A stretch of 64,000 nucleotides of DNA, taken from Phyllobates terribilis (taxonomy: Eukaryota). The stretch is from contig NW_027362765.1 of NCBI RefSeq assembly GCF_046119375.1, positions 568,974,001 to 569,038,000 on the forward strand, read 5' to 3'. The first letter of the stretch is position 1, and each line of letters starts with the position of its first letter. The notes under the pieces were generated by a model, which did not search any database, was not told where the DNA came from, and saw only the letters and a program-made list of their open reading frames with translations. Positions 1-24,295 of the stretch are shown in pieces. The position numbers were made by a program, and so were the translations under genes.

Positions 1-736
1 GCTGCAAGAGGGGTACCGGCCCCCTACACCCGACCTTGTGCTCCATGTCCTGAATGGGAAAGCCCGGTTAGGCCCTGAGGATCCCACCGGGCATCGGATG
101 GAGAGGAATTGCCACCCGTGCCCTAGTCCTGAGAGGAGCTCAGAGGGAGACCCGGCCTATCCACACACGCACAGACGGGAAAGGGTGAAGTCTGTAGTGC
201 AGGAACACTCTGGTGTAGGGTCGCTACCGAACACTGGACTTTCTCGGAGGTAGTCGGACCCCCGTCCTTGGTGGCTGCAGGACTCCACGGGGAGCAGGGA
301 GTGACCTTCCCGCTATCATCTCTAAGTGAGTAAAGCCTTGGAAGTTCACCCCTATGGCCTCTAGACTGTTCATTATGCGCCATACCATGCGATGCGGTGC
401 ATGTACTCCCTGCACTACTACCCCCCTCCATCCTGTTTGCCTGCCCTGAGGCCACGCTCCGCCTGTGGGGAGCAGTAATAATTTTGGCCGCCATGACACC
501 AGGCCTCAGCGGACTGTAGCGGCGCTGGTGACCCTTCACCAGGCACCACAGGTGGCGTAGTCATTAAAATAAGCACTCAACCTGGACAAGCCCACACCAT
601 CTCTTTCTAATGTGACGGCCCTGAGACGGGTCGGGCCCGGGCCACGGCTGCATCCCACCTCTCCATCACAGGGCCCGACACCGAGTCCCCCAACACCCAG
701 GGTAAAACACGGGCTTCTCTGAGTAGAAGTGTCACA
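1..736 (+). repeat. 5' LTR (partial)
   Basis: Direct repeat of 3362-4099; ends GTGTCACA immediately before the PBS. Confidence 0.9.
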
Positions 737-739
737 ACC

Positions 740-757
740 TGGTGTAGTCGACAGGAT
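740..757 (+). promoter_or_regulatory. Primer binding site, tRNA-Ser
   Basis: TGGTGTAGTCGACAGGAT, 3 nt after the LTR end; 16/18 match to TGGCGTAGTCGGCAGGAT, the complement of the vertebrate tRNA-Ser 3' end. Confidence 0.85.
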
Positions 758-1009
758 CGCGTGCCCGCAGCAAAGGAAGAAGTGCCCATTGCTACCGGGT
801 ACTGTGTGCCTTACACCTTGAACTGTTGTTTTACACTTAAAATGGCGCCCGCCCAAGAAGAACAGACGCCATAAAGCTGTAAAAAGACTGTCTTTAAACG
901 CCTCCCATCGTGGGCTGGGCTCCCTTTTGGCGCCAAAAATGTGGACTGCCCCTTCCATCAGAGACTGTCCGCAGGGTAAAGCCCGTCAAACTGGATGGGC
1001 TGAACGAAG

Positions 1010-1750
1010 GTGGGCCTGTCAGCATTCCGCCCAGGAACCGCCCCAAAAGAGGAGGAAAATGAAAAGCAACAAGGTGCGGCCATTGCATTCGGAGCTTGGC
1101 AGTCAATGGAGGCAGACATGGATGCCTCTGGGGAGCAAGTCCACGCATCTACTGAACCCGGTTCAGGCCCTTCACCCGGCAGAGAGCAAGGCGGCAGCGT
1201 GTTGACCCCGGGAGAGATTGCATTTCTCCAGCAGGAAGCTCCGGAGCTCCTAAGAAGGCAGAGAGAGGCCCAGGAGGCTGCGACGGCTGCGTGGCGGGAG
1301 GAGATGCTGCTGCGTATCCGGGACCGCCGCCAAGAAGTTGAGGGCCCAGGACAAATCGACTCGGTGACAGAGGTCGAGGGCGGCCCAGCGGCGGGTGAGT
1401 GTGCAACCCCTGCCCTGGCTGCAGAGCCTACCGTGACTATCCTGGACCTCATGACGGAGTACCTGATTCCCCACGCGGTCACCTGGGAGCAAGCGTTGGC
1501 TCCAGAGCTGCAATCGGCAGCTGTAGGTGGGGACCTGCGATGCCGCACAAACCCTGACACGGAGGTGCCTGAAGCTGCGGAGGAAACTACCGGCTCCAAC
1601 CTGGACTGGTCCGCGCCTACAGAGGACTCGCAGCAACCCGTTCTTACCACACTACCCGCACCAGCGGTAACCTGGCCCGAGGCTGAGGAGTGGGCCTGGG
1701 AAAACCAGGGGGGGCGAACTAATGGGCTTCCCCCGGGAGACCCGGGCTGA
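1010..1750 (+). pseudogene. Internal acidic/low-complexity ORF of the LTR element (gag position, no gag motif recognised)
   Basis: 246-aa E/A/P-rich ORF just downstream of the PBS; helical-looking segment LLRRQREAQEAATAAWREEMLLRI. Confidence 0.45.
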
Positions 1751-1901
1751 AGCGCGGAGGAGGAGCCAGTGGTGCAGCCACCAGATATTCCAGCTCACAT
1801 GAGAGCAACGTCGGCGGGAGCAGCGCTGCGAGCGCCTCGAGGCCCGGACCATACCTGCAAAAACTCGGGTGCGTCAGGAGGAGGCCACCCATCCCAGTCC
1901 C

Positions 1902-2118
1902 CGGTACAAAGGCCAAGTCATCCGTTTTCATCATGAGGCGGGGTGGGGGTTCATCCGGTGTCCCCAGTTCCAGGACGATGTGTTCGTCAGCCGGCGGGAC
2001 GTCTAACAGCGTCTCAAGAAGGGACACCTCAGTCGGAACCTCTTCCCGGGCGACACAGTGACTTTCACTCGCCACCAGGGGGAGCGTGGGTGCTATGCCC
2101 TGGACATACGCAAAGTAT
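1902..2118 (+). pseudogene. Cold-shock domain (OB-fold nucleic-acid-binding domain) with one in-frame stop
   Basis: Manual translation from 1902: RYKGQVIRFHHEAGWGFIRCPQFQDDVFVSRRDV*QRLKKGHLSRNLFPGDTVTFTRHQGERGCYALDIRK; RNP1-like GWGFI, RNP2-like DVFVS, L..GD.V.F and G..A.DI motifs; TAA at 2004-2006. Confidence 0.8.
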
Positions 2119-2764
2119 CTGGGAGCGACGCCACCTCGCGTTCAGCCTCAGGCGACCGGCTGGCCTCCGTCGGGAGGAATGAGCCCTTTCCGAGAAGGCA
2201 GCCCGAAGTTTAGAGCAGCCCCCGGCTGTTTCTGTTTTTGTTTACGAGTTAAAATGTTGACTTTTCCTATTATGCCTAATTTCTTACCCAGTTTCTAGAG
2301 ACACGTGTCCCTGCGTAATGGCAGCAGACAGACTCTCTGCGTTGTATGTAGTTTGCATCTCTTTAGGTGCTCCATATTGGTTTTATGTGAAAACCGTGCC
2401 TTTCTTCTACCTCGAGGCCTCAGAAGAAAAACCTGTCAGGGTGGCTCACCGGGAGGTCCAATTCGGGATCTTCATGCCTTGCAGCCACCCCAGGGCCTAT
2501 GTTGGGGGTTTAGGACAGGTCCCTCATACTTCTGAACTGACTTTGTGACGTTGCACTTTAATCTGTCTGTTTGCCAAAATGTCTCTGGAAAAAAAAAATG
2601 CTAGCACTTTTAGAATTTTATACTTTTATACTATGCACCTTGTTATGTAACATTTAAGAAATGTGCCTTCCATAAAGGGATGATACTGTAGTTTTGCTTG
2701 TTATCATAAAAAGAAAATTTCCTGGGTGTTACTTCTTTTGCAGCCCGCGGACGTGCTGTGTTTT

Positions 2765-2776
2765 ACCAGGGGGGAA
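2765..2776 (+). promoter_or_regulatory. Polypurine tract
   Basis: ACCAGGGGGGAA directly before the 3' LTR start. Confidence 0.75.
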
Positions 2777-4099
2777 TTTGGCACCCCTGAGGGTTCGACC
2801 GCCACAGGAATGCTGCACTTCTCTAATGGAGTGTGGTGTTCCTCCTCCGAGGTAAGGCCACTTGATAGTCGTGACTCAGCTTTGCATCCAACACCACACT
2901 TCTCCACCAGAGGGAGCTAGTAGGCACTAGGTGCTGCTCCCCTGGTTACAGGGAGACTGGGGAACACAAAGTGGTAGGAACCAGTTACTGGGTGAGGGTG
3001 GAGGACTTACTAGTTAGTTACACTTCAAATTTCATATTTAATAGTATGCCATCTTTGATTTTGTCGACGGTTCTAGTGGTTGTACTGTGCTGTCAAACTA
3101 CTGTGTGTTAATGTGGCTTCCCTCCGGGAGCACAGATCCTGTGTGGGCCTGCACCAGCAAGGGACACAGCACTCGTACCCTGGCCTTGGGACGAGAGGTA
3201 GGTTGTAGACAAGGAATGTCTCAACCCGGCCAAGGACCAGGATCGAGAAAGCCCGGGAGCTCTAGAGTGTGGCTCCCCAGCAAATGGGTCCCAGGGAGGA
3301 TGCAGACGGAGCAGAGCACGCCACCTGTCCTCGCCTACCTGATCTATTCAGAGGGATTCCGGCTGCAAGAGGGGTACCGGCCCCCGACACCCGACCTTGT
3401 ACTCCATGTCCTGGACGGGAAAGCCCGGTTAGGCCCTGAGGATCCCACCGGGCATCGGATAGAGAGGAATTGCCACCCGTGCCCTAGTCCTGAGAGGAGC
3501 TCAGAGGGAGACCCGGCCTATCCACACACGCACAGACGGGAAAGGGTGAAGTCTGTAGTGCAGGAACACTCTGGTGTAGGGTCGCTACCGAACACTGGAC
3601 TTTCTCGGAGGTAGTTGGATCCCCGTCCCTGGTGGCCGCAGGACTCCGCGGGAAGCAGGGTGTCGCCTTTCCGCTATCATCTCTAAGTGAGTAAAGCCTT
3701 GGAAGTTCACCCCTATGGCCTCCGGACTGTTCATTATGCGCCATACCATGCGACGCGGTGCCCGTACTCCCCGCACTACTACCCCCCTCCATCCTGTTTG
3801 CCTGCCCTGAGGCCACACTCCGCCTGTGGGGAGCAGTAATAACTTTGGCCGCCATGACACCAGGCCTCAGCGGACTGTAGCGGTGCTGGTGACCCTTCAC
3901 CAGGCACCACAGGTGGCGTAGTCGTTAAAATAAGCCACTCAACCTGAACAAGCCCACACCATCTCTTTCTAATGTGACGGCCCTGAGGACGGGTCGGGCC
4001 CGGGCCACGGCTGCATCCCACCTCTCCATCACAGGGCCCGACACCGAGTCCCCGAACACCCAGGGTAAAACACGGGCTTCTCTGAGTAGATGCATCACA
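2777..4099 (+). repeat. 3' LTR (~1.32 kb)
   Basis: Starts TTTGGCACC (TGTGGCACC-like) after the PPT and ends TCACA; its start is homologous to the solo LTR start TGTAGCACCCTGAGGG. Confidence 0.85.
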
Positions 4100-4129
4100 A
4101 TTTGAATTCTGTCAGATATGCTCATTTCT

Positions 4130-4523
4130 AGTGAGGAGTTCTCTAAATTTACTTATCAATGAATTGAGCGAACCAAGTGGATGATTTAGTAAGAACAATG
4201 TTTAGACTGTTACTGTTATAAATATAAAATATAACGTATATAATACTTTTATTAACCAGACCTATGTATCTACACATAGAAAATCATGTTCTTAGTAAAT
4301 TATTCCCATGCACGTATGGAAAGGGAAGTGATTTGCATTACATTCTTATACAGTCCACACCTTTCCTTCAAGGTAGGCAAATGATAAAAATCTAATTGTA
4401 GTTAATAGTCAGTTAGAATTCCTACTGGTTAATTTGGCATCTGATTGCTCAACATGACAGTAGACCAGTATGTTAAGCATCTATCTAATAAGCTTCAATA
4501 TCCATCTATTGTGACCTTGTATA
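4130..4523 (+). promoter_or_regulatory. Paralogous copy of the promoter module found upstream of the Cys/Pro-rich gene; cut by a repeat
   Basis: Shares GAAAGGGAAGTGATTTGCATT (octamer 4331-4338), TTAGAATTCCTA..GGTT and CAGTAGACC...TGACCTTGTAT with 37990-38212. Confidence 0.6.
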
Positions 4524-5210
4524 CAGTGTCCATTTTAGGACATGATTAGATATCAAAGTCAAACATCAGAATAATGTCAGTTTTGAGCTAAATACTCTGA
4601 GAACTGACTTTGATATCTGACTTAGATATGTGACTTTGATATGTGACTTTGGCATCTGACTTTTACAACTGATAATAGTAATAAAATAAATAACTCACTG
4701 TCCACACTGGAACTTGAACTCAAAGCTCTTTGTTTAGAAACCACTGCCCGTACACTTATCATTAAGCTATACACTCAGTGTTATAATCATTGGCATTCTA
4801 TTTGGTTATGTGATTTTCATTGTAAATGTGTCTAAAACGCATTGGGACTTTCACACAGACCTCCTCCAAGCCAAATTCAAATGATGTTTGATTTTGATGT
4901 TTGACTTTCATATCTGACTTTCTTCACACATCAGAATCATAATGACTTTTAGACACCCTGAGTATTTTCATGGTTGATCCCATAAGCCAAGAAAAACTAC
5001 CACCTGTTGTGACTTGACTCTATGGCTAAATGGTAAAGCTTGAGCTCCTGGGTTCAAAAACCAGGTGCAGAAGAAGAGTTTTATTTTTATTTTGTTAATT
5101 AACCTGGCTAGCACACAAACTACAGTGATGTTTTACTTTTAATATCTGACATTCTTATTGTCATCCTGATGTCTTAAGAAAGAGTTTCAGACACGCTGTG
5201 TAAATCACAT
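4524..5210. repeat. Unclassified dispersed repeat with 13-bp TGACTTTGATATG-type tandem units
   Basis: 4524-4660 matches 61805-61960; about 4864-5075 matches 63790-64000 inverted. Confidence 0.65.
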
Positions 5211-5248
5211 AGCCAAAGTAAATTGGGAGGCACTGATTTACTATATAT

Positions 5249-8024
5249 TAGTGATGAGCGAGCACTAAAATGCTTGGGTACTCATTACTCAGGTTGAGTA
5301 AATCGTAATGCTCGGGCGCTCAACCCGAGTAGCGAGTACAATGTAAGACAATGAGAAACTTAAGCATTTTTCCGGCGGACTCCTCCAGAGGTCAAATCGA
5401 TGGAAACAGTGCTGAAATGACCTGAGAACAGCATGTGGAAGACCCCTGGAAGCATCTTTGAATCCCAGGTCACTGCTGTGAACAATGTTGTCAGCATATT
5501 ACGCCACTTTTACGGACTGACAATAAAACATACAAAAACAAAGCCAAAATGGATTTTCCTGGAAAAAAAATGTTAAGAAACGTTCTTTCCAGGGTAATGA
5601 CTTGTATATAAGGCAAAATAAATAACCAAAGACAAAAATGCTCCCCCACACCTTGGGCTATGTTCACATGTAGCGCTTTTGATGCATTTTTGTACTTTTG
5701 TATTGCTGTCAATGGTGAAAAATACATTCACTAGTAAATGTCATTTTAACATTTTACTACCTTACCTGGCCATGTGGTGTGCGAGACATGATTAGACACA
5801 TCCTGTTTAATTTAAGAAAGAGGGACTCTGAAAATCACAATGCCTATTTTTACAGGGCCATCAGGAGGCCCTAACTATTGTTAAACAGTCTGGAGTTGGC
5901 CCTCACTATTATTAGAGGGCCATCAGTCGGCTATGCTTTGTTGTTCCCATTATTAAGGAGTGAGTCTCCTATACATAGTGGAGGGCCTTATGAATTGGAG
6001 GCTATCCAATATGTGTCTTTAAAGGGGTATTGGAGTGCTTCCTAATTTTTGACAGCCCTTGAACTTGCTGCACACGCAATAACAGTATAGGAGACCCACT
6101 CCTTAAGAAGGGAAAGAAATAAAGTACTGAGGCCCTTCACTACGTCTATTGAAAGTGGTATTGGCATGCCTCCTAATTTTGAGCAACCCTTGAATTTGCT
6201 GCATATGCAATAACAATATAAGAGACCCTCTCCTATGTTGTATGTTGCAGTACCAGAAGTTCCTTGTTGAACAATTATTAAAAAAATCCTGTCTGTCAAC
6301 ACTTGCGACAGACGTCACAGTTTCTTGGACAACCAAGTAGTACAGGTGAGGGAGAAACAAAGCAGATGCAGCAGAATGCTGACAAAGGTCTAGGACGGTT
6401 TTCTCAGACCCTCTCAGTGCCCAGGCCCTGATGTGCAGGTTGCTGTGACAAGGAGGGAAAAGTTTTGGTAGATGCTGAAGGACTACCTTGGTGACCGTAC
6501 CAGCTCCCTCCTTGATTCCTCTGTGCCTTACAACTATTGGGTATCCAAAATGGAAATGTGTCTCTCTTCATCTAGTGCCAGTATAGCGATTATATTGGTC
6601 AGGGACCAAGTGTGGATATGTTTTGAATGCACAACTGGCCCACTTTAAAGGGAGTATAATATTTTTCAGCTTGCAAAAAAATGTCTGGATTATTACTGCA
6701 GAAATGTTTGATCATGTCTGATGACCAATTTTTTATGCATTGCCAGTAAAGCAATGCTATTGGTCAGCGACAAAGTGTGGATATGTTTTGAAAGCACAAC
6801 TGGCAGACTTTAAATGGAGTATAATATATTGCAGCTTGCAAAAAATGTCAGGATTATTAACGCAATAATATTTGATCACGTCTGATGACCACGTTTTTAT
6901 ACAGTGGCGGTATAGAGATGCTATTGGTTAGCAATCAAGTGTAGATTTGAACGCAGAACTGGGAGACTTTAAATAGAGTATAATATTTTGCAGCTTGCAA
7001 AAAATGTTCAGATTATTACCGCAATAATATTTGATCACATCTGAAGACCACGTTTTTATGCAGTGGCAATATATAGCGATGCTATTGGTCAGCGATCAAG
7101 TCTGGATATGTTTTGAACGCACAACTGGCACACTTTCAATGGAGAATAATATTTTGCAGCTTGCAAAAAATTTCAAGATTATTACCGCAGTAATATTTCA
7201 TCACGTCTGATGACCACATTTTTATGCAGTAGTGGTTTTCAATGCACAACTACCAAACTTGAATGGAGTATAATATTTGGCAGCTTCCAAAAAAATTAAG
7301 GATTATCACGGAAGTAATATTTGACCACCTGATATTATGGACAAGTTTTTATGCTTGCACAATACAGCAATGCTATCCAAATCAACTAAATCTGGCTGAA
7401 TGCTGTTAAAAAGCAAATGGAGCAGTAAAAATGGTGTATTATATTGCTTTTCACCAAAATTATCAGGATTAAGAGCAAAAGGAATATTATTAACCATGAT
7501 ATCTAGAGCTATTAATATGAGCTCCAGCTGCAGAAAGAACATGCAATGGACCCTATTCTGTACTATACTAGGTCTCCACAAACTCTGCCTAACTAGTGCA
7601 AACAGCAGTATTAATATTCATCAGAATGAGACCTTACAAGGACTGTTAGTGTAGATGAAATTAATAATAGTGGTGTGGAATCACTGTTTCAAATAAGTGC
7701 CTCGTTCAGCTGCACCTCTCCCTACTATGCCTGTTTGACGGGTAGACTGTGACAAGCATAGGGTCCTGGGTCTTATATAGACAAGACGACGCTATGCGGT
7801 CAGCCAATCACTGTACTGCCACAACCAACATGGCTACGGCATTACAGTGACTGTCAAGAAATCCCTGCATGTTAATTGACTGCCTAATATGCGTCAAACA
7901 TGCGGGGCAGGGACTTAAGCTCCCGCCTGAATATTCAAAAAATACTAGCCGAGTAATGAGCATCTCGAGCACTGTGATGCTTGGGCAAGTAATGAGTAGT
8001 GATGAGCATGTTCGCTCATCACTA
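5249..8024 (+). mobile_element. Old non-autonomous hAT element
   Basis: 13-bp TIR TAGTGATGAGCGA...TCGCTCATCACTA; remnant DYLGDRTSSLLDSSVPYNYWVSKME (~6481-6555) resembles the start of the hAT dimerisation domain; no matching 8-bp TSD. Confidence 0.7.
6580..7340. repeat. Degenerate ~163-bp tandem repeat, ~4.5 copies
   Basis: GCTATTGGTCAGCGA..AAGTG motif recurs near 6590, 6755, 6920 and 7080. Confidence 0.8.
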
Positions 8025-8289
8025 CAAATGCACTATAGTAGTAATTTTTAGGTTAAAAGATTTACACAAAGGATGTAAGAGGTCATATTTATTTTAATGC
8101 TCATAATAAAGTAAACCTTGAGTGTACAGTAGGAGTCAAATTAGCTAATTAGAACAGAAAATTTGCATAATATTAATATCAATATGTCTATTAAAAATAC
8201 CTTCCCTTTATTTTTTTTTTATTAAAACTGTGCATATGTAAATATAGTGCAATGACTTTGTGTGTTAATATACTCTCCTGCTGCCATTT

Positions 8290-8530
8290 TCTCTGGTGTC
8301 TAGCGTTGTTCCACTCCTCTTCTCTGTGATAGCACCATTCTTCAGACTCTCTGGATCACTCTATGTGTTAGCCAGAAGTCTCTTTTACATTGCCAACTTT
8401 GTTCTGCTTGATAGACTTAAATTGTAAAAGCCACTTTGGGGTCACCCAGAGCACAGAGTGACCCGGAGAGTCTGAAGAGCAGGGACATCATTCCGAAGAG
8501 GACAGGAATGGTGCTGAACACCGGAGAAGA
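8290..8530. mobile_element. Palindromic MITE remnant
   Basis: CTTCAGACTCTCTGGATCACTCT (~8339) is inverted relative to AGAGTGACCCGGAGAGTCTGAAG (~8455). Confidence 0.45.
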
Positions 8531-9040
8531 CAGTGGTAAGTGATTACATTAACATAACATGAACAAAATATTCCATTGTGATGAGGAAACTGTCAGTACA
8601 TTTTTTGAGAATGTCTTTTTAAACATTGCTTCTAATATAGTAAAATAAAGTTTCAGGAACTGATTTGAGGTCTTATTAAACCAGGAATGTTTATTCTGCA
8701 TGTGATTTGCAATCTTGTTAACCATTCAGATGCAGGTATATCCCCTCTTCATAGGGTTGTATATATCAAGCGTTAAACATCACAGCTTTATGGTGAAGAA
8801 TAAAGCCGGGGGGCTACTGAGAATCACTTTGGATTCCTCGGTGGTAAAGCCACCAGGACACAAGATTACGAGCGTATAAACAGCACAATTATGCATCTGA
8901 TAGTAGCCTGGCATCTACTCTACACCCATATCTGGGAAAGTTTCCATCCCAGAATTCCCTTGTGCTTCCTCTGAGGATTGGTGGTCATGTAACCACATGT
9001 ATTTGATTTCCACACTTGTGATCATATACCAACCAGACCA

Positions 9041-9270
9041 GGCAGCACAGTGGCTCAGTGGTTAGCCCTGCAGACTTGTAGTGCTGGGTTCCTGGGTTCA
9101 AATCCCACCAAGGACAACATCTGCAAGGAGTTTGTATGTTCTCCTAATGTTTGTGTGGGTTTCCTCCCACATTCCAAAGACATGTGGAGTGTGAGCCCCA
9201 ATGGGGACAGCGATGATAATGTATGTAAAAGTGCTGAGGAATATGTTGGCACTGTATAAAGATTATTATT
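9041..9270 (+). mobile_element. tRNA-derived SINE, V-SINE-like
   Basis: A box TGGCTCAGTGG, B box GGTTCAAATCC, central GAGTTTGTATGTTCTCC...GTGGGTTTCCTCC domain, and a (ATT)n-like tail. Confidence 0.8.
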
Positions 9271-9497
9271 TCTTCCACTTGAATATTAGGAAATGAAGGG
9301 GAGATTAGTGAGCACATGACTGCAAGTATGCAAATCACATATACAGTCTATTATCATGTGACCAGCCTCCCACACAGGGCATATTGGGAATCGTGGCAGT
9401 CCATGAATCATACATTCTTAGACCCCCTTCACACATCCTTATTTCTGGTATATATGTGACATCCATTTTCTCACATACAGACGCTCACCTGTATTTA

Positions 9498-9740
9498 CTG
9501 TATTTTTCGGATTATAAAACGCACTTTTTTCCTCAAAAATTTTGGAGGAAAATGGGGGGTGCATCTTATAGTTTGAATTTTGGGGGGTGTATATAGATGT
9601 GGGGTGTGGGGGGAGTGGTAGTGGTGGAGGAGCAGGGCACAGGAGGCAGCAGCCGCCCGCTGCAGCCTACACTGTCCCCGCTGCTAAAGAAAATGAATAT
9701 TCACTGCTCCCCACGCCCATGGGGAGTCCACATATCGTAG
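9498..9740 (+). mobile_element. pogo/Tc1-mariner-type MITE, one end
   Basis: TA followed by CTGTATTTTTCGGATTATAAAACGCAC, a pogo-like TIR; partner TIR not found. Confidence 0.5.
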
Positions 9741-9914
9741 ACTCCCTAAAGATCCGACAACACAGACTCAATCACATATTACCTCTACATTACAGCGATT
9801 CTTAACAGCTAGGGTGATTGACTTGAAAACATATGAGTACCTAATCAATCAACATCCAATTATACCGGTATATTACGTTTTACCAAAATCCATAAAAGTC
9901 TTACTTACATAATT

Positions 9915-10030
9915 TTGGGCATAGTAGCAGTGTGTGGTACTCATCGTATTAGGCCATCTATACCAAGCTTCACCAGCTTTGAAATTAATAATAATTTTTA
10001 GCTGCATCTAGCCCAGAAAATAATTTTTCT
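9915..10030. repeat. Isolated copy of the hAT ~110-bp unit
   Basis: TATTAGGCCATCTATA...TTTTTAGCTGCATCTAGCCCAGAAAATAATTTT matches units at 22620-22735. Confidence 0.75.
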
Positions 10031-10055
10031 TCCCAATAGTGGTAGCAATAGAAAT

Positions 10056-10343
10056 ATGGGGCGTGCGCCTGGCTTCATAACAAAAAACACCAGCCTATCG
10101 CACTGCATTAATAAGATGGCATCATCGTCTCTCCCAGTGCTAGGCCTACTACGCCGGCTAGCATTCCTGTGCCTAAAACACAATGTATGGGTCCGCGCTA
10201 GCCACGATGCTGAGGGGTCTAACGCTGCTGCTAATGCTGTATCACAATTCAATTGGCAGATTTTCACAGAGCTCCTCCCCAATGCCCACCCATCGGACAA
10301 CAGTTGCCCACCCTCCCTATGGGTTCTAGTGGCAAATAGTTGA
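10056..10343 (+). pseudogene. DIRS/Ngaro RNase H C-terminal remnant
   Basis: SSSLPVLGLLRRLAFLCLKHNVWVRASH..G.N..ANA.S.F.W pattern. Confidence 0.7.
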
Positions 10344-11230
10344 TGCCATTAATCAGAGCGTCAGTTGCCCCGTCGACGTGGCAAGCATACGGTAAGGCAT
10401 GGGAAGAGTGGACACGACTAGTAGCAGGCAGACGGGTTGACCAATGTGAACAAGACAGATTACAAGTCACCATAGAATTTCTCCACCAGCTAATGATGAG
10501 GGGCATATCAGGGGCGTCAGCACAGTGGTGTCTGACCAGAGTAGCATTTCACTTCCAACTACTGAATTGGGGAGATGCGATAAAGAGATTCATCATCAGA
10601 CAATCCATAAAAGGGTGGAAAAGGGGTCAGCCAAGTCAGGAGTGTAGACGTCCCGTCCCGTGTCACTAAAACTGATTTCTCACATCATATCCCTAACACC
10701 ATTAACATGACACTCACAATTTGAAGCAACACTACTGTCTACTGCATTTGCGATCGCCTTCTTTGGGGAGCTATGCATAAGCGAATTAGTCCCTCAATCC
10801 AAAATTACCACCAGTGGAGGCTTATTACACCAGGACGTAGTCATAGCCAATAATGCAATACGTCTACGCGTACGCAAATCGAAAACAGTTCCAGCGGGCA
10901 GGGGCACTTGGGTACTTCTACAACCCACAAACGGTATACTGAGTCGGGTAACAATAGTAAAAACATATATAACCATCAGATCACAAAGTAATTTCTTCCT
11001 ATCACACATTGATGGAACGCCATTATCAAGATACCAGTTCCAAGCTATATTTAATAAATGCCTAACATCGGCAGTGAACCACCCCAAAGATTACGGGACA
11101 CACTCATTCCACATAGGCGTGGCCACGGAAGCAGCAAGAGCAGGACTGTCAGAAATGGAAGTTCAGAGGAAAGGGAGATGGTGATCCACATGTTTGGCGA
11201 GATACATAAGACCGGACTTGTTATCCTAAC
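10340..11230 (+). pseudogene. Tyrosine recombinase (disabled)
   Basis: SVAPSTWQAYGKAW N-terminus, FFG....ELV, RKSKT and GTHSFHIGVATEA (HSFRIGAAT-like) motifs across frameshifts. Confidence 0.8.
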
Positions 11231-11249
11231 GTGGTTTGTTTCTTTTACA

Positions 11250-11851
11250 GTTGACGATAAGCCAACAGTGTGGGTGATAGGCCACTCGTATATATATTGG
11301 GCAGAAAAAAGGGCAAAAGTCCGCCAGGCGGGAGGAAATTAGAGTTTCATAACACATATTTCAACTGGAGAGGTATTAGAGGCCTGCAATGGCCACAGGT
11401 ACTAATGGAGGTAATCAAGGTAGGGAGAGAGGCAAGAGGTCCGGTCATCTTAGTTATACAGGACGGGGGAAACGACCTAGGTCATCACAAGAGCACATAA
11501 CTAATGGTAATAATGAAACTAGACACTGAGCGCTTCAGAGAATTTTTCACAAAACTAACTATAGTATGGTCAGAGATTGTGCCGATAGCGGTATGGCAAA
11601 GTGCGCGAGACATCACGGCCATCGAACGGACAAGGCGGGTAATAAATATTCGGATGGCAAAATTTAGAAGAGACAGAGGCGGTGTAGTGATACGACACCG
11701 ACAACTGGAAGGAGATAAAGCAGGCCTCATACGGCCTGACGGTGTTCACTTAATGGATATTGGACTGGACATATTCCTGTCAGGACTCCAGGACGGAGTG
11801 GAACAAGCGTTAAGAGTGTTGGATGGGGGTCAGAGTCCTGCATACGAGTAG
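11250..11851 (+). pseudogene. SGNH hydrolase ORF of Ngaro
   Basis: VWVIGHSYIYW, WRGIRG, GGNDLG, IVWSEI, DGVHL motifs. Confidence 0.8.
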
Positions 11852-12489
11852 GCAGGATCCTCCGTGGCCTGGAAATAAAAAGGACATGTTGGAGAGTTAC
11901 ACTTGTTGGCCAACTTGCCGGTGTGCAACAAGCTGAATTATTTTAGAAATAAAATGCCTTTCTAATGGAATGAGTATAAAGAGTTAATAAAGCTGTGACC
12001 GATCCTCACCCATCCAGTTGTAAGAGTTACATTATTGTATTGTCAAGGAAAGGGGGGCGATAGGGGGGCTGAGCGTCTGGGTTTGGTTAGGGGTCCCCAC
12101 AGTCTGCCTAGGCTATATGCAGTTAAAAATTCTTATTAGATGCACAGGCAGTGTAGCTTGTTTCAGAGCTGGGCAACTACGCTGACTAGCATACACTGAA
12201 GCTTTGGAGCAGACCTCTGAGTAAACAACTCTTCAGACTCAACCATCTGTGTTACCCCAAGCCATAGTGTATGTAGTTTTTTATGGTTAAAAGGGGGGTG
12301 GGGCGACCCAACCCACCTGGAATTGACGATGCCAACGTCACGTAAAACACAGCAAGGGGTCTTCAAAAAGCGTCTCCATTTTTTCCAAAAATTGTGGCAC
12401 AGACACCACTTAAGTGGCATCAATTGCCCCAGAGTTGCTAAAAACGGTTGGTGAGTTGATTTTAACAAATCCTCAACTTTTAGTCTCCC

Positions 12490-13775
12490 CAGGATGACAC
12501 AGGGGTAGAAAAGTCCTTGCGGATCCATGATTTGTTCATCTTTATGAACATGAGTCTGTCTACATTCTCAGTGGACAGCCGCGTGTGCAAAAGTCCTTGC
12601 GGATCCATGATTTGTTCATCTTTATGAACATGAGTCTGTCTACATTCTCAGTGGACAGCCGCGTGTGCTTATCTGTCAGCACACCACCAGCAGCGTTGAA
12701 CACACGATCAGAGAGAACGCTGGCTGCAGGACATGACAAGATCTCCAAGGCTTCCAAATTAGAAGCCCAAAATGAGCAAGGGTCCAGTGACACAGTCATG
12801 GCTTCGATGTTCACTTGGAGATACTCCTGTACCATCCTCTCTAGGCGTTCACTATGTGTCAGACTTCTTGTCTCCTGTGGCCTTGCAAAGGATGGTCTAA
12901 AAAAGTGGTGAAACGATTCCACAAAATTGATGTTACCAGCAGATACTGTGTTACTGTTGCGGTTTGAGTGATGAAGACTCGACAGTCCCACGGTTGGCAA
13001 GTTAGAACTGTGAGATTCACTACGTGCACCACTGGTGTTTTGTGGAAAAGCACATGTAAGATTCTGCAACAGCCTCTGCTGATACTCCTGCATGCGTGAA
13101 TCCCTTTCCATGGCAGGAATTATTTTGGCAAATTTACTTTTGTACCGGGGATCTAAGAGTGTGGCAACCCAGTAGTCGGGATTACTTCGAATTCTGACAA
13201 TCCGAGGGTCATGTTGCAGGTAGTGCAGCAAGAAGGCACTCATGTGTCTTGCGCAACCAGGAGGACCAAGTCCTTGTTGTGTTGGTAGTGAGGTAAGAAT
13301 CACGCTTCCTTCCTCTGCCCTATCCCCCCAAACTCGCACAACAGAAATGTGATCAAGGTCTCCCTCATCTGATGAGTCTTCCATGCCCATCGCCAGTTCG
13401 TCCTCCACTTCTTCCTCGGCTCCTGCACCTTCCTCAACAGTTTGGCTGCTACCATGTGCCCTGGTTAATCCCTCTCCCCCACCCTCCCATGCCTGTCGCC
13501 TTGGTGCTGCAGACCGTCTGGACCTTGGAGATGTTATCCCTTCCGCATACGACTCCTCCTCTACTTCCTCCACCTCCTCTTGTCCCACCACCTGACTCCG
13601 AATTCTGTTTAACGTGTGCTCCAGCATGTAAATCACCGGAATAGTCATGCTGATAATGGCATCGTCAGCACTAAACATCTTCGTCGCCATTTCAAAACTG
13701 TGCAAAAGGGTGCATAGGTCCCTGATCTGAGACCACTCCTGCAGCGTGATTTGCCCCACCTCTGGATCTCGTTGG
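12490..13775 (-). pseudogene. Older hAT copy: transposase C-terminal part (host of the nested insertion)
   Basis: ORF 12560-13759 with YWVATLLDPRYK and CPAASVLSDRVF; sequence continues at 27001. Confidence 0.9.
12509..12668. repeat. 80-bp tandem duplication at the transposase 3' end
   Basis: AAGTCCTTGCGGATCC starts at both 12511 and 12591. Confidence 0.9.
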
Positions 13776-14689
13776 TAGAGATGAGCGTTGTTCTACTCGA
13801 ACTGTTCGCCAATCTCAAATTCGAGCTGTTTTGGGCGGTGTTCGAGCCGTTCGGCGAACACGAACGATTTGAGAAAAATTCGGCTGTTCGAGGTTATGTT
13901 CGATAACCGTGCACCAAAATCATAACTGGATTTTTTCTCAGTAATGATGAAAATTAATGTTAATACGCAGTTTGAGTGTACAGCGGGGTGGGGGGAGGGG
14001 CAGGGGATGGATCTCTGCAGGAACAATGAAGATCTCCATTTTTTTTTTCTCTTTCCCGCATTTACAGTGGGGAGGTGCAATCTGTCAGCCTATCAGCAGC
14101 GCACACACGGAGCGAAGTGCTTTTTTTCACACAAGCAAGGGCATGTGTCATTGGCAGTGTATGTCACATGTCCTTGCCCTATAAGACCAAGCCATTTTCC
14201 CCGTCGCCACCATTTTCTCACTGCTGCAGCTGCGTGTTAGACGGCACCGCTGTTGCTGTGTGCGCTATACCTTGTTAATTTCAAGCCAATTTTCGCACAA
14301 ATCTACAGATAGCTTGGGAGTAGGGAATAGTTGTGATTGCAGTCCTTTTAAGGACTAGGTTACAGCATTTCCTACGACTTTTATCAGGCAGGTCTGTGCT
14401 CTTAAATAGATAGATTGTGGGAGTAAAGACTAATTGTAATTGCAGACCTTTTCAGGACTAGGTTACATCAGTTCCTATCAGTTTTTGCCAGGCAGGTCTG
14501 TGCCAGTGCTGTGCAAGTTTTTTTCACAGCATTTGGCTGAATCTAGCAAAGCTAATCCTTTTTGGCTTATTGCACAGTGTGTTTGTCAGTGGAGTAGCCT
14601 ATCTGTGTTGCAAGATATACCACCTGTGTATAGAATACCAATTTTTTTACTGCACCTAGTGAAGTAAAATCTTTTGGGCATAGCATCAT

Positions 14690-17600
14690 TCTATTAGTCC
14701 ATCTATACTGACCTCCATCAGGTTGCAAATTGAATATAATTTTTTTCTGCATCTAGCTCTGAAAAAATATTTGGGCTTCTAGCAGTGTGTGGGACTTGTT
14801 CTATTAGTCCATCTATACTGACCTCCATCAGGTTGCAAACTGAATATAATTTTTTTCTGCATCTAGCTCTGAAAAAATATTTGGCCTTCTAGCAGTGTGT
14901 GGGACTTGTTCTATTAGTCCATCTATACTGACCTCCATCACGCTGCAAGTTCAAAATAATTTTTTGTCTGCATCTAGCTCTGAAAAAATATTTGGCCTTC
15001 TAGCAGTGTGTGGGACTTTCTCTATTAGTCCATCTATACTGACCTCCATCAGGCTGCAAATTAAAAATAATTTTTATCTGCATCTACCTCTGAAAAAATA
15101 TTTGGCCTTCTAGCTGTGTGTGAGACTTGTTCTATTAGTCCATCTATACTGACCTCCATCAGGTTGCAAATTGAATATAATTTTTTTCTGCATCTAGCTC
15201 TGAAAAAATATTTGGCCTTCTAGCAGTGTGTGGGACTTTCTCTATTAGTCCATCTATACTGACCTCCATCAGGTTGCAAATTAAAAATAATTTAGATCTG
15301 CATCTAGCTCTGAAAAAATATTTGGCCTTCTAGCAGTGTGTGGGACTTTCTCTATTAGTCCATCTATACTGACCTCCATCAGGTTAAAAATTCAAAATAA
15401 TTTTTATCTGCATCTACTTCTGAAAAAATATTTGGCCTTCTAGCTGTGTGTGGGAATTGTTCTATTAGTCCATCTATACTGACCTCCATCAGGCTGCAAA
15501 CTGAATATAATTTTTTTCTGCATCTAGCTCTGAAAAAATATTTGGCCTTCTAGCAGTGTGTGGGACTTTCTCTATTAGTCCATCTATACTGACCTCCATC
15601 AGGTTGCAAATTAAAAATAATTTTTTGTCTGCATCTAGCTCTGAAAAAATATTTGGCCTTCTAGCAGTGTGTGGGACTTTCTCTATTAGTCCATCTATAC
15701 TGACCTCCATCAGGTTGCAAATTAAAAATAATTTATATCTGCATCTAGCTCTGAAAAAATATTTGGCTTTCTAGCAGTGTGTGGCACTTTCTCTATAAGT
15801 CCATCTATACTGACCTCCATCAGGTTGCAAATTCAAAATAATTTTTTGTCTGCATCTAGCAATGAAAAAATATTTGGCCTTCTAGCAGTGTGTGGGACTT
15901 TCTCTATTAGTCCATCTATACTGACCTCCATCAGGCTACAAATTAAAAATAATTTTTATCTGCATCTACCTCTGAAAAAATATTTGGCCTTCTAGCTGTG
16001 TATGGGACTTGTTCTATTAGTCCATCTATACTGACCTCCATCAGGTTGCAAACTGAATATAATTTTTTTCTGCATCTAGCTCTGAAAAAATATTTGGCCT
16101 TCTAGCAGTGTGTGGGACTTTCTCTATTAGTCCATCTATACTGACCTCCATCAGGTTGCAAATTAAAAATAATTTATATCTGCATCTAGGTCTGAAAAAA
16201 TATTTGGCCTTCTAGCAGTGTGTGGGACTTTCTCTATTAGTCCATCTATACTGACCTCCATCAGGTTGCAAATTAAAAATAATTTTTTGTCTGCATCTAC
16301 CTCTGAAAAAATATTTGGCCTTCTAGCAGTGTGTGGGACTTTCTCTATTAGTCCATCTATACTGACCTCCATCATGTTGCAAATTAAAAATAATTTTTTG
16401 TCTGCATCTAGCTCTGGAAAAATATTTGGCCTTCTAGCAGTGTGTGGGACTTTCTCTATTAGTCCATCTATACTGACCTCCATCAGGTTGCAAACTGAAT
16501 ATATTTTTTTCTGCATCTACCTCTGAAAAAATATTGGGTTTCTAGCTGTGTGTGGGACTTGTTCTATTAATCCATCTATACAGACCTCCATCAGGTTGCA
16601 AACTGAATATATTTTTTTTCTGCATCTACCTCTGAAAAAATATTTGGGCTTCTAGCTGTGTGTGGGACTTGTTCTATTAGTCCATCTATACTGACCTCCA
16701 TCAGGTTGCAAACTGAATATAATATTTTTCTGCATCTAGCTCTGAAAAAATATTTGGCCTTCTAGCAGTGTGTGGGACTTTCTCTATTAGTCCATCTATA
16801 CTGACCTCCATCAGGTTGCAAATTCAAAGTAATTTTTATCTGCATCTACCTCTGAAAAAATATTTGGCCTTCTAGCTGTGTGTGGGACTTGTTCTATTAG
16901 TCCATCTATACTGACCTCCATCAGGTTGCAAACTGAATATAATTTTTTTCTGCATCTAGCTCTGAAAAAATATTTGGCCTTCTAGCAGTGTGTGGGACTT
17001 TCTCTATTAGTCCATCTATACTGACCTCCATCAGGTTGCAAATTAAAAATAATTTATATCTGCATCTAGCTCTGAAAAAATATTTGGCCTTCTAGCAGTG
17101 TGTGGGACTTTCTCTATTAGTCCATCTATACTGACCTCCATCAGGTTGCAAATTAAAAATAATTTATATCTGCATCTAGCTCTGAAAAAATATTTGGCCT
17201 TCTAGCAGTGTGTGGTACTTTCTCTATTAGTCCATCTATACTGACCTCCATCAGGTTGCAAATTAAAAATAATTTTTTGTCTGCATCTAGCTCTGAAAAA
17301 ATATTTGGCCTTCTAGCAGTGTGTGGGACTATCTATATTAGTCCATCTATACTGACCTCCATCAGGTTGCAAATTAAAAATAATTTATATCTGCATCTAG
17401 CTCTGAAAAAATATTTGGCCTTCTAGCAGTGTGTGGGACTTTCTCTATTAGTCCATCTATACTGACCTCCATCAGGTTGCAAATTAAAAATAATTTTTTG
17501 TCTGCATCTAGCTCTGAAAAAATATTTGGCCTTCTAGCAGTGTGTGGGACTTTCTCTATTAGTCCATCTATACTGACCTCCATCAGGTTGCAAATTAAAA

Positions 17601-18610
17601 ATAATTTTTTGTTTGCATCTAGCTCTGAAAAAATATTTGGCCTTCTAGCAGTGTGTGGGACTTTCTCTATTAGTCCATCTATACTGACCTCCATCAGGTT
17701 GCAAATTAAAAATAATTTTTATCTGCATCTAGCTCTGAAAAAATATTTGGCCTTCTAGCAGTGTGTGGGACTTTCACTATTAGTCCATCTATACTGACCT
17801 CCATCAGGTTGCAAATTAAAAATAATTTTTTGTCTGCATCTAGCTCTGAAAAAATATTTGGCCTTCTAGCAGTGTGTGGGACTTTCTCTATTAGTCCATC
17901 TATACTGACCTCCATCAGGTTGCAAATTAAAAATAATTTTTATCTGCATCTAGCTCTGAAAAAATATTTGGCCTTCTAGCAGTGTGTGGGACTTTCTCTA
18001 TTAGTCCATCTATACTGACCTCCATCAGGTTGCAAACTGAATATATTTTTTTTCTGCATCTACCTCTGAAAAAATATTGGGCTTCTAGCTGTGTGTGGGA
18101 CTTGTTCTATTAATCCATCTATACAGACCTCCATCAGGTTGCAAACTGAATATAATTTTTTTCTGCATCTACCTCTGAAAAAATATTTGGGCTTCTAGCT
18201 GTGTGTGGGACTTGTTCTATTAGTCCATCTATACTGACCTCCATCAGGTTGCAAACTGAATATAATTTTTTTCTGCATCTAGCTCTGAAAAAATATTTGG
18301 CCTTCTAGCAGTGTGTGGGACTTTCTCTATTAGTCCATCTATACTGACCTCCATCAGGTTGCAAATTAAAAATATTTTTTTGTCTGCATCTAGCTCTGAA
18401 AAAATATTTGGCCTTCTAGCAGTGTGTGGGACTTTCTCTATTAGTCCATCTATACTGACCTCCATCAGGCTGCAAATTAAAAATAATTTTTATCTGCATC
18501 TACCTCTGAAAAAATATTTGGCCTTCTAGCCGTGTGTGGGACTTGTTATATTAGTCCATCTATACTGACCTCCATCAGGTTGCAAATTGAATATAATTTT
18601 TTTCTGCATC
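14690..18610. repeat. ~110-bp VNTR, ~35 copies, upstream of the transposase
   Basis: Head-to-tail TCTATTAGTCCATCTATACTGACCTCCATCAGGTTGCAAA... units with no spacers. Confidence 0.97.
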
Positions 18611-18728
18611 TAACCCAGCCAATAGTTTTGGCCTAATACCACAGTTTGGCCACTCAGCTCTGCTCGGTTCCCATCCATTGTTTTTTTGTGCAAACAACTC
18701 CAGAGTTGTGAATTAGTTAACCACCAAA

Positions 18729-21700
18729 ATGAGTGGAAAAAGGCCTGCTGCTGGTGGAAAGGGGAATAGGCATGTTGGGAAGGGGAAAAAAGGTTGTGTC
18801 CGTGGGGTAGGTGTTAAAGCAACAGTAACATCTGCAGAAGAAAGACCATCTTCCAGCCAAACTAAAATGTCTACTTCTTTTAGCGGACAATGTGATAAGA
18901 TCCCTTTCTTACGGCCACGCCAATCGCTACAAATTCCAGATGAGGCACAAAAACAGCAGGTGCTTCAACGGATATCAAGTGCTCCTTTAAGTGGGCTCTC
19001 CTCCACATCAATTTCAACATCACAAATACTCCAGTCCTCAAAGGTGTCATCCCAATCGCACTTGCTTCCTCACAGCTCCCAAATCTCCAGCTGCCCGTCT
19101 GAGTATGAGGTAGAACAGATGGTTGAGTCTGCAGAGCTGTTTACTCATACTATAGCCTGGGAATCAGAGGTCGACTCCAGCGCTTCTGTGAATCCAGACG
19201 AGGAAATGATCTGCACTGATGCCCAGAATCTTTATGAGTCGGATCCAGGACCAGACGCAGAACGTTCTGACCATAATGTAGACCCTCATTCCCAAACTGT
19301 AACTCCTGTTCGTGGAGACAATGAGGAAGACGATGATGAGACTCAAATACCTGATTGGAGCGACAACTTTAGTTTTTTGTCAGGGCAGGAACAGGTTGGC
19401 TCTGAGGACGACGGGTGTGATAACGCACAGGGTGATGATGATGAGGTTGGAGATCCCACTTACTGTCAACCCACAGTCAGCCAAGAGATGAGGTCAGCAG
19501 AGGAGGTGGAGGAAGATGCTAGTGACGATGAGGTCAGGTTGCGCCTTCCTGGACAGAGACGTAGTACTGGAAGCACGTCAACAACTGCATCCTCAAACAC
19601 AACTCTGCCTCTCACCACAAGTCGTGGTGGCTCTTCAGGTCGCATGGGTGCTAAGCCTTGCATAGCCTGGGCATTTTTTCAGATCGATAAAGATGACCCA
19701 ACTCGTGTTATCTGTAACATTTGTCAGCAAAAGCTAAGTAGAGGCCAAAAAATACATAGTTTGAGTACTTCATGCATGAACCGGCACATGGACATGAAGC
19801 ATAAGTTGCAGAGGGAAGCGCAGTGTGCTACAATGCAGCCTAGCCGGCCGGGCCAACCACCGTCTGCCATATCTTGTGCATCCGCGGCCTCTTCATCCTC
19901 TGTGACTGGGGGGACAGCAGTCACACCTGTTTTGGGGCGCAGACCTGCTACCTCTTTACCCGCAACAGCCAGCGTGATTGGCAGGTCATCATTTTCTTTG
20001 GAGGTGGTAAAACCAGCTGGTGTTGAGCGCTGTCCGACATCGATAGCACCACCTTTGGATCAAGGCAACCTAACATGTCCGCCTGCATCTTCCTCACAGA
20101 CCGGCAGTTTGCCGGGGACACCCTTATCAACCCCGTCTAAGCACAATAGCCAGCCCTCGGTCCCTCAGATGTGGACAAGTAAAAGACCATTTCCTCCTAG
20201 CCATGAGAAAGCTAAGAGGTTGAATTTCACCATCTGCAAGCTCTTGGCTACAGAAATGCTGCCTTTCCGCCTGGTGGACACAGAGGATTTTCGAGACCTT
20301 ATGTCCGTCGCAGTGCCCCAGTACCAGATGCCCAGTCGGCACTACTTCTCAAAGAAAGGTGTTCCTGCGCTCCACCAGCATGTCGCACACAACATCACCG
20401 CTTCTTTGAGAAACTCTGTGTGTGACAGGGTGCATTTCACCACAGACACTTGGACGAGTAAGCATGGACATGTCGCTGACTGGGCACTGGGTAACTATGG
20501 TGACAGCAGGACAAGGGGCTGCTGTCCAAGTCTTGCCGTCCCCACGAGTTGTGCGTCAATCCTCTTTATGTCAAAGTTCCTCCACTGCTTCTGCCTCCTC
20601 AACCTCCTCTCGGTCTTCCACCTGCACCCAAAGTCTGTCTGGTCATGCCACAAGCTTTCTAACTGCGCAGAAGTGATCCTGCACACCTCCTTACTATGCT
20701 GGCAGTAGGGCTCAACGTCATCAGGCAGTTTTTACTTTGAAATGTCTGGGAAATGTGAGTCACACATCTGAGGAGTTGTGGTCAGCTCTGGAGAACCAAT
20801 TTCATGAATGGTTGTCTCCACTGGACCTGAAACCAGGGAAGGCCGTGTGCGACAATGCTGCAAACCTGGGTGCGGCCCTTCGCCGGGGCAATGTCACACA
20901 CGTGCCTTGTATGGCTCACGAATTGAACCTGGTTGTCCAGCAATTTTTAGCCCACTATCCCAGACTAGATGGCCTTCTGCAGAGGGCACGGTCGCTGTGT
21001 GCTCACTTCCGCCGTTCGCATCCCGCAGCTCAGCGACTTACATCTCTACAGAAGTCGTTGGGCCTGCCACTTCACCGGCTAAAATGCGATGTGCCTACCT
21101 GGTGGAATTCAACTCTGCACATGTTGCAGCGACTGTGGCAGCACTGACAAGCCCTGGTGCAATACGTTCTGACGTATAGCCTGGGCCAACGAGATCCAGA
21201 GGTGGGGCAAATCACGCTGGAGGAGTGGTCTCAGATCAGGGACCTATGCACCCTTCTGCACAGTTTTGAAATGGCGACGAAGATGTTTATTGCTGACGAT
21301 GCCATTATCAGCATGACTATTCCGGTGATTTACATGCTGGAGCACATGTTAAACAGAATTCGGAGTCAGGTGGTGGCACAAGAGGAGGTGGAGTAAGTAG
21401 AGGAGGAGGAGTTGTATGCGGAAGGGCTAACATCTGCAAGGTCCAGACGGTCGGCAGCACCAAGGCGGCAGGCATGTGAGGGTGGGGGAGATGGTTTTAC
21501 CAGGGCACATGGTAGCAGCCAAACTAGTGAGGAAGGTGCAGGAGCCCAGGAAGAAATGGAGGACGAACTGATGGAAGACTCATCAGATGAGGGAGACCTT
21601 GATCACATTTCTGTTGTGCGAGGTTGGGGGGAGAGGACAGAGGAAGGAAGCATGATTGTTACCTCGCCACCAACACAACAGGGACTTGGTGATCCTGGAT

Positions 21701-22425
21701 GCGCAACACACATGAGTGCCTTCTTGCTGCACTACCTGCAACATGACCCTCGAATTGTGAGATTTAGAATTAATCCTGACTACTGGGTTGCCACACTGTT
21801 AGATCCCCGGTACAAAAGTAAATTTGCAGAAATTATTCCTGCCATAGAAAGGGATGCACGCATGCAGGAGTATCAGCAGAGACTGTTGCAGAATCTTACA
21901 TGTGCTTTTCCACAAAACACCAGTGGTGCACGTAGTGAATCTCACAATTCCAACTTGCCAACCGTGGGACCGTCAAGTGTTCAGCACTCAAACCGTAACA
22001 GAACCACAGTATCTGCTGGTAACATCAATTTTGCGGAATCATTTCACCACTTTTTTAGCCCATCCTTTGCAAGGCCACAGGAAACAAGAAGTCTGACACA
22101 TAGTCAACGCCTAGAGACGATGGTACAGGAGTATCTCCAAGTAAACATTGAAGCCATGACTGTGTCACTGGACCCTTGCTCTTTTTGGGCTTCCAATCTG
22201 GATAAATGGCCGGAGCTAGCCACTTACGCCTTGGAGATCTTGTCATGCCCCGCAGCCAGCGTTCTGTCTGAACGTGTGTTCAGCGCTGCTGGTGGTGTGC
22301 TGACAGATAAGCGCACGCGGCTCTCCACTGATAATGTAGACAGACTCACGTTCATAAATGAACAAATCATGGATCCGAAACGACTTTTCTACCCCTGTGT
22401 CATCCTGTGGAGAGTAAAAGCTTGA
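18729..22425 (+). pseudogene. hAT (ZBED-like) transposase with BED finger, DDE core and dimerisation domain; several lesions
   Basis: BED (WAFF...CNIC...MNRHMDMKH), FTTDTW, CDNAAN, SERVFS; 11-bp deletion near 20470, stops at 21145 and 21394, frameshift near 22358 relative to copy B. Confidence 0.92.
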
Positions 22426-22449: not shown

Positions 22450-22740
22450 ACCGTTTTAAGCTTTCAAATTACTAATCATGTTTATCTGTATCTTGGCTGG
22501 AAAATAATTTGGGCTTTGTAGCATTTCAGCACTGATTCTATTAGGCCATCTATAATAAGCTCCACCAGATTTAAAATTACTAATCATGTTTATCTGTATC
22601 TTGGCTGGAAAATAATTTGGGCTTTGTAGCAGTGTGCAGCACTGATCCTATTAGGCCATCTATACTAAGCTCCACCAGATTTAAAATTAATAATAATTTT
22701 TAGCTACATCTAGCCCGGAAAATAATTTTGGGGCTCCGAG
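22450..22740. repeat. ~109-bp tandem units downstream of the transposase (~2.6 copies)
   Basis: AAATTACTAATCATG at ~22466 and ~22575; related to the upstream VNTR unit. Confidence 0.8.
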
Positions 22741-22854
22741 ATGCGCAAGACACATAAGTGCCTTCTTGCTGCACTACCTGCAACATGACCCTCATATTGT
22801 CAGAATTCGAAGTAATCATGACTACTGGGTTGCCACACTCTTAGATCCCCCAAA

Positions 22855-24223: not shown

Positions 24224-24295
24224 TACATGTGCTTTTCCACAAAACACCAGAGGTTCACGTAGTGAATCTTACAGTTCTAACTTGCCAACCGTGGT

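Follow-up and report, generated by a model that had tools for sequence, protein, structure and literature searches.

Long terminal repeat (LTR) retroelements that possess a primer-binding site and a polypurine tract and have no pol gene are copied in trans by a helper element, as are the non-autonomous elements of the TRIM, LARD and MaLR types, which combine intact cis-acting signals with the lack of pol. To our knowledge, these types are either non-coding or carry a Gag-like open reading frame (ORF), and we know of none that encodes a stand-alone RNA-binding-domain protein. Among frogs, coding LTR elements without pol are represented by 1a11 and xretpos from Xenopus (PMC4585706), and in a poison frog, elements of the Gypsy-like type occur in abundance and are expressed in the germline (PMC6278860). 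In birds, 46 endogenous retroviruses (ERVs) classed by their reverse transcriptase (RT) carry cold-shock domains (CSDs) at varied positions; these domains were captured repeatedly, and the main text of the report suggests that the captures may aid ERV proliferation (PMC12287698). Here, we analyze an LTR retroelement at the beginning of a 64,000-nucleotide stretch of DNA (the window) from the poison frog Phyllobates terribilis (assembly GCF_046119375.1, contig NW_027362765.1, positions 568,974,001–569,038,000, forward strand). This copy has neither a detectable gag nor a detectable pol gene, and the sole domain recognized in its only ORF is a divergent CSD. Its intact cis-signals and missing pol are those of the TRIM, LARD and MaLR elements, and it would likewise be mobilized in trans.

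Like 1a11 and xretpos, as these are characterized in the main text of their description (PMC4585706), the P. terribilis element is a frog LTR element with an ORF and no homology to pol, whose LTRs outnumber the copies of the ORF. However, the 1a11 protein is Gag-like, whereas no Gag signal accompanies the CSD studied here, and a tRNA-Arg primer was suggested for xretpos(L), in contrast to the tRNA-Ser primer of the element in the window; this separation rests on the described traits of the two Xenopus elements, not on their sequences. The term "cold shock" is absent from the main text of that paper and from the main text of two poison-frog genome papers. With the bird ERVs, our element shares a PF00313 domain lodged inside an LTR retroelement; it differs from them by the lack of an RT and by the location of the CSD in the sole ORF. 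Furthermore, the bird domains have E-values of about 1e-24 to 1e-26 (two entries in PMC12287698), while the frog domain is far more diverged (1e-5 to 1e-9 in five relatives). In the open-licence literature, with Repbase, Dfam and subscription papers outside the search, we found no element whose only ORF encodes a CSD protein; an entry in Repbase or Dfam may exist. An earlier reading of the window (the original prediction) had known of no family described with this layout, a statement that holds for the combination within the literature searched and does not extend to its ingredients, since the lack of pol in LTR elements of frogs (PMC4585706) and the capture of CSDs by ERVs of birds (PMC12287698) have each been published.

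We regard it as fairly probable that the copy in the window is a decayed member of a multi-copy family of LTR elements devoid of gag and pol, that the CSD protein of this family is an accessory RNA-binding protein, and that the family depends on a helper. The features of the element, all on the + strand, are as follows.

1–736, +: 3' part of the 5' LTR, its 5' end cut off by the start of the window; CA terminus; 95.7% identical to 3362–4099
740–757, +: primer-binding site of the tRNA-Ser type, 3 nucleotides past the LTR
758–1105, +: leader, likely common to other interiors; perfect 14-bp palindrome at 925–938
1106–1696, +: 5' part of the ORF; helix-like block near 1223–1340, followed by an acidic linker rich in Pro, Ala and Glu
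1696–1716, +: frameshift interval of this copy, where the match to the frog protein P0153 switches frame
1707–1901, +: conserved motif and charged helix ahead of the CSD; residues 262–399 of the frog protein P0016 match 1707–2120 (E 6e-23)
1902–2114, +: divergent CSD; PF00313 match, broken by the stop at 2004–2006
2115–2213, +: short C-terminal tail; terminal stop at 2211–2213
2214–2766, +: non-coding 3' region without Pfam match; 2440–2555 and the final 35–40 nucleotides are common to more abundant sequences
2768–2776, +: polypurine tract, read from the sequence
2777–4099, +: complete 3' LTR of 1,323 bp; CA terminus

An LTR retroelement without detectable gag or pol

The direct repeat that encloses the interior (1–737 versus 3362–4100) is 95.7% identical, and the LTR pair shows a Kimura two-parameter divergence of 0.042 (24 transitions and 6 transversions among 736 aligned sites, plus 2 columns with gaps). 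Both LTRs end with CA; the 3' LTR of this copy does not start with TG, its second base being unlike that of nearly all relatives. The tRNA-Ser primer site and the polypurine tract, which the original prediction had placed on either side of the interior, are both borne out. The purine tract runs to position 2776, and a pattern representing the complement of the primer site had 117 matches in metagenome contigs, of which 80 were listed and 40 checked; ARAGORN called a tRNA-Ser gene at 37 of these 40 loci, and the primer site was mismatched at 2 of 15 positions against each of 13 such genes. In viral contigs, the pattern occurred at two loci only, both of them called tRNA-Arg. These viral tRNAs (L001 147–244 and L002 77–174; Arg(tcg) according to ARAGORN) are unusually long, and their 3' ends are common to animal-type tRNA-Ser. 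About 170 nucleotides downstream of the primer site, the leader contains the perfect 14-bp palindrome at 925–938, which could be an RNA dimerization site or an E2F-type site. The folding of the leader RNA is not unusual (z −0.93; 17 of 100 shuffles were equally good).

Between the primer site and the polypurine tract lie about 2 kb in which no CCHC, protease or RT motif is present in any of the six frames, and none of 29 further stop-to-stop frames of at least 40 residues had a Pfam match at E ≤ 0.05; the pol-less interior is thus confirmed. Pfam and PDB profile searches detected no capsid family in the frames of the window or in eight related frog proteins. A weak match to SrfA in the frame 822–1202 (E 0.0085, below the cutoff) was judged to be a chance match.

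The single ORF and its cold-shock domain

When the stop codon at 2004–2006 is replaced by X, the frame 1803–2213 matches PF00313 with an E-value of 3.6e-9 (36.8 bits versus a cutoff of 27), and each half of the CSD alone also matches this family, below the cutoff (E 0.0017 and 0.0062). The CSD interrupted by one stop, the charged helix ahead of it and the stop at 1800–1802 are therefore as originally described. PF00313 is likewise found in five relatives (E 1e-5 to 1e-9), three of them above the cutoff and two at 23.7–24.1 bits. For one natural relative, the portion comprising the helix and the CSD is predicted to form a five-stranded barrel (predicted local distance difference test score, pLDDT, 79), with Z-scores of 13.2–13.6 to CspA/CspC and 12.0–12.7 to YB-1, a near tie. 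An Atlas search with a natural relative returned bacterial CSD clusters only, all under 0.9.

The domain shares its barrel fold (Z 12–13.6) with CspA and with the Y-box proteins (YBX1, YBX2/FRGY2), and with the latter also the long loop between strands 3 and 4 and, in most sequences, the equivalents of F74 and F85. It differs from these proteins by an identity of only about 30–36% and by its location close to the C-terminus, where it is preceded by a long acidic linker. With respect to the Y-box family, its 30–33% identity to YB-1/YBX2 contrasts with the near-invariance of the vertebrate CSD, the human and zebrafish YB-1 domains being identical according to the main text of PMC7498358. The origin of the domain is viewed differently by different comparisons. 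Its top PDB sequence matches are YB-1/YBX2, and the profile A1 ranks Y-box proteins first (41.3 bits), followed by CspA (36.3), LIN28 (25.6), CARHSP1 (23.5) and CSDE1 (20.3), whereas the profile A3 places CspA (22 bits) ahead of the Y-box proteins (17.3 bits). Sequence and structure rankings disagree, and the long loop that the domain has in common with Y-box proteins weakly favors a Y-box ancestry.

In YB-1, the core nucleic-acid contacts are made by W65, F74, F85 and H87 (as given in the main text of PMC7498358). We located the equivalent residues by motif, with F74 belonging to the anchor motif itself. The equivalents of F74 and F85 are each present in 10 of 11 sequences, the Y72 position is occupied by Trp in 9 of 10, the two positions following H87, past the RNP2 site, are each Arg in 10 of 11, and the frog CSDs contain a His/Gly/His/Arg loop motif. 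Two of the four core RNA-stacking residues of YB-1 are lost in the frog group. As judged from the model, the CSD has retained its fold; its binding face is altered.

In the copy present in the window, the ORF has suffered one frameshift (1696–1716) and two stops in the CSD frame (1800–1802 and 2004–2006). For the family, the original prediction had envisaged one protein encoded from 842 or 1010 to 2200, with the upstream frame joined to the CSD. Between the ATG at 842 and position 1004, three stops lie in frame, and the start is consequently more likely at one of the in-frame ATG codons at 1106 and 1118. The long upstream frame (1004–1750) is not the CSD frame in this copy, and homology in the CSD frame extends upstream to 1707, beyond the stop at 1800–1802. 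The junction of both parts is matched by P0153, whose residues 36–196 align with 1223–1696 in the upstream frame and which continues, in order, with a match to 1716–2078 in the CSD frame; therefore, the relatives likely encode one protein. Its match beginning at residue 36 fits a start at 1118 and hence a likely ORF of about 365 residues, an estimate resting mainly on P0153, a predicted gene model. The N-terminal parts of the relatives match the window far more weakly, with two of seven beyond 99% of the shuffles: the upstream score was reached by none of 500 shuffles for P0153, by 4 for P0157 and by 23 to 88 for the five other relatives. An Atlas search with the upstream frame gave no usable match.

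Contigs from three DNA runs belonging to two studies (10,909 to 14,999 contigs aligned per run, most at 90–99% identity) bear on the state of the ORF in other copies. At position 1802, the entire contig depth in all three runs differs from the letter in the window, so that the stop at 1800–1802 appears to be particular to this copy; in the common variant at 2213, the codon is still a stop, in support of the assigned end of the ORF.

A single ORF behind the primer site, with a nucleic-acid-binding domain near the C-terminus of its product and no CCHC motif, could also be a highly derived Gag in which a CSD has taken the place of the zinc-knuckle nucleocapsid. Coiled coils begin some Ty3/Gypsy Gags, and the N-terminal helix-like block, which recurs in the relatives, may resemble them. 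Moreover, the pol-less Xenopus element 1a11 has a Gag-like protein, as stated in the main text of PMC4585706. However, no capsid family emerged from the Pfam and PDB profile searches, the region before the charged helix is of low complexity and net acidic (Pro, Ala, Glu, Gly, Gln, Ser and Thr make up 57–65% of it in the window as well as in four relatives), and for the full-length relative P0016, the Atlas model reaches a predicted template-modelling score (pTM) of 0.26 and a mean pLDDT of 0.51. We consider a derived Gag very improbable, and the proposal that the CSD stands in for a nucleocapsid finds no support, because such a substitute needs a capsid to attach to and none was detected by the profile searches.

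Frog relatives and abundance of the family

A full HMMER protein scan with the CSD frame yielded 410 proteins at E ≤ 0.001. Among the 150 matches listed, 145 were multi-stretch and five were single-match, the latter being uncharacterized proteins of Ranitomeya variabilis, R. imitator, P. terribilis and Anomaloglossus baeobatrachus. A profile built from these five had 13 matches among 8,000 scored candidates, namely the five originals, five more from the same frogs and three environmental proteins with multiple CSDs. Unlike the full scan, word-seeded protein searches that used the CSD frame of the window retrieved no relative (260 and 14 candidates), and no related locus was confirmed among 176 and 95 pattern matches in metagenome and viral contigs. 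Ten proteins from dendrobatoid frogs (four species, three genera) share the helix-plus-CSD block; they are 31–58% identical to each other over at least 80 residues and 36–55% identical to the window. In a tree without rows for Y-box, LIN28 or CSDE1 proteins, from which P0154 was dropped for its short span, the window clusters with the frog CSDs, separately from seven environmental outgroups (support 95/97). The invariant CSD columns are kept across the frog lineages. A helix-plus-CSD block that is kept between fast-changing flanks suggests selection in the element lineages, and we infer from these alignments that the block has probably been maintained by purifying selection.

Five of the relatives (P0152, P0153, P0154, P0157 and P0158) are gene models that start with pieces of the ORF and continue into unrelated domains (R3H, DDE transposase, MIF4G, MADF or astacin/CUB). 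They look like repeats absorbed into the annotation, as such repeats tend to be, and are either annotation chimeras or real LTR-driven fusion transcripts. As no fewer than five gene models thus open with pieces of the ORF, some of these annotations are likely chimeric.

All 30 bins of the region 700–4150 are covered in the three DNA runs, and each of the six sites listed between 1802 and 2213 has a letter other than that of the window in 10 to 37 contigs per run (the variant table lists 40 rows, with 301 more beyond them; 2004–2006 lies outside the listed 40). Summed over contigs, the depth in the CSD bins, which is not a copy number, amounts to 3,300–14,200, while most of the listed single contigs contribute only 5–25. 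Depth and variants point to many copies of the interior. Together with the ten frog proteins, the variant contigs show that the CSD is not a one-off capture, in line with the family envisaged originally. In one possible RNA run, the LTR and parts of the interior are covered and 1860–2323 is not, a result that has no weight either way.

The CSD might nevertheless be the remnant of a captured host gene that was amplified as a passenger of an LTR element without serving it. Its long Y-box-like loop and the top PDB matches to YB-1/YBX2 would be expected from such a capture, and the frameshift and the two CSD-frame stops testify to decay of this copy. We regard a passenger as improbable, given that the frog matches include no near-identical orthologues, that the frog CSDs form one group apart from the outgroups, are only 30–33% identical to YB-1 in structural comparison and keep their invariant columns, and that a neutral passenger would not be expected to remain open and alignable at such depth.

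The contig data also speak to the organization of the interior. In run X1, the depth is 7,700–8,600 over the CSD and 11,300 at 2324–2439; such similar values before and after the ORF end would be expected of an interior that forms a single unit. The median depth of the LTR is 20.5–28.3 times, and that of the leader (700–1047) 3.9–4.8 times, the depth of the CSD. A spike at 2440–2555 reaches about 14 times the CSD bins in run X1 and likely represents a cis-element that a more abundant type of element also possesses. Many unlike loose contig ends lie just before 2734 and 2741, ahead of the polypurine tract. The excess of LTR and leader and the diverse joins before the purine tract indicate that the LTR also flanks other interiors or occurs as solo LTRs.

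This sharing of LTR, leader and part of the 3' region with more abundant sequences would also fit a CSD gene that began as an accessory ORF in an autonomous parent, either Ty3/Gypsy-like or retroviral, from which an internal deletion removed gag-pol and in which selection mainly acted. The RT-bearing bird ERVs with CSDs at varied positions provide a precedent (PMC12287698), and selection on a trans-acting protein would be easier to explain in an autonomous element. Directly after the ORF stop (2208–2323), the depth falls about threefold, and copies could diverge there into other sequence. However, the depth has recovered by 2324–2439 and the trough lies on a T-rich tract; furthermore, none of the ten frog relatives (171–2000 residues) contains a Pfam family for RT, integrase, protease or capsid, though in genome annotation such elements are, as a rule, masked. 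We judge an autonomous parent to be rather unlikely, yet the strongest of the rival explanations.

The remainder of the window is rich in other repeats. A 4.4-kb segment is present twice in inverted orientation with 98% identity (22567–27003 and 50152–54590); each copy holds an 18S rRNA fragment (26191–26554 and 50609–51025) and, recognized by eye, an RT fragment resembling those of long interspersed nuclear elements (24258–25100 and 52056–52724), with adjoining transposase pieces. The LTR pieces 408–472 and 3769–3877 match this segment at 24947–25056 and 52100–52209 (65–112 bp, 71–75%). Copies of a transposase gene, labeled hAT-like by eye from BED-finger-like and dimerization-like motifs, are found at 12563–13792, 18717–22422, 27065–29455 and 54635–58339, some with long open frames. 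Tandem arrays of a 110-bp unit stand directly ahead of transposase frames at 14690–18612 (35.6 copies) and 58444–59169 (6.6 copies) and may belong to the transposon. A strongly G-skewed 31-bp minisatellite (about 84 copies) occupies 43555–46162, and a CR1/L2-like RT fragment of 295 residues, again identified by eye, lies on the − strand at 31696–32580.

Proposed propagation in trans and its implications

Under the explanation that we favor, a helper-dependent element with an accessory CSD protein, the helper would supply the capsid, the RT and the integrase, and would share with the element the LTR, the leader and the 3' cis-sequences, that is, the over-represented regions. The CSD protein would bind single-stranded RNA through its altered surface, mainly the transcript of the element itself, might stabilize or shield this RNA in germ cells and might favor its uptake into helper particles; it must act preferentially in cis if selection is to retain it. 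Host YB-1 supports the RNA metabolism and early replication steps of human immunodeficiency virus 1 (PMC6040738), and a benefit from a CSD protein encoded by the element is therefore plausible.

Several observations weigh against this explanation. The position equivalent to W65 is aromatic in none of the ten sequences scored and that equivalent to H87 in none of 11, and with both equivalents lost, RNA binding may be altered or lost. The ten frog proteins are presumed to lie inside LTR elements, and no helper was found in the window, where similarity to the LTR elsewhere is restricted to 65–112 bp at 71–75%. The summed depth does not count copies, the contigs are mostly shorter than 210 nucleotides and thus too short to link the whole interior in other copies, and the depth trough lies just past the ORF.

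More tentatively, and as a possibility rather than a probability, these elements may be old and diversified LTR parasites of frogs, having lost all retroviral genes and retained a single self-serving protein, in which a re-tuned CSD on a long acidic tether marks and protects the RNA of the element in germ cells and routes it into the particles of another element. If so, they would constitute a satellite-type retroelement with an RNA adaptor of its own and, taken together with the bird ERVs, would be a sign that CSDs recur as accessory modules in retroelements. A loss of coding capacity is expected of non-autonomous elements because a trans-acting protein also helps free-riders; the keeping of one RNA-binding protein across lineages that are only 31–58% identical would show that an element dependent on a helper can be under selection for an accessory function. 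The suggestion that captured CSDs aid the proliferation of retroelements, made in the main text of the report on bird ERVs (PMC12287698), would thereby become testable, and the altered binding surface of the frog proteins would be a natural CSD variant worth assaying.
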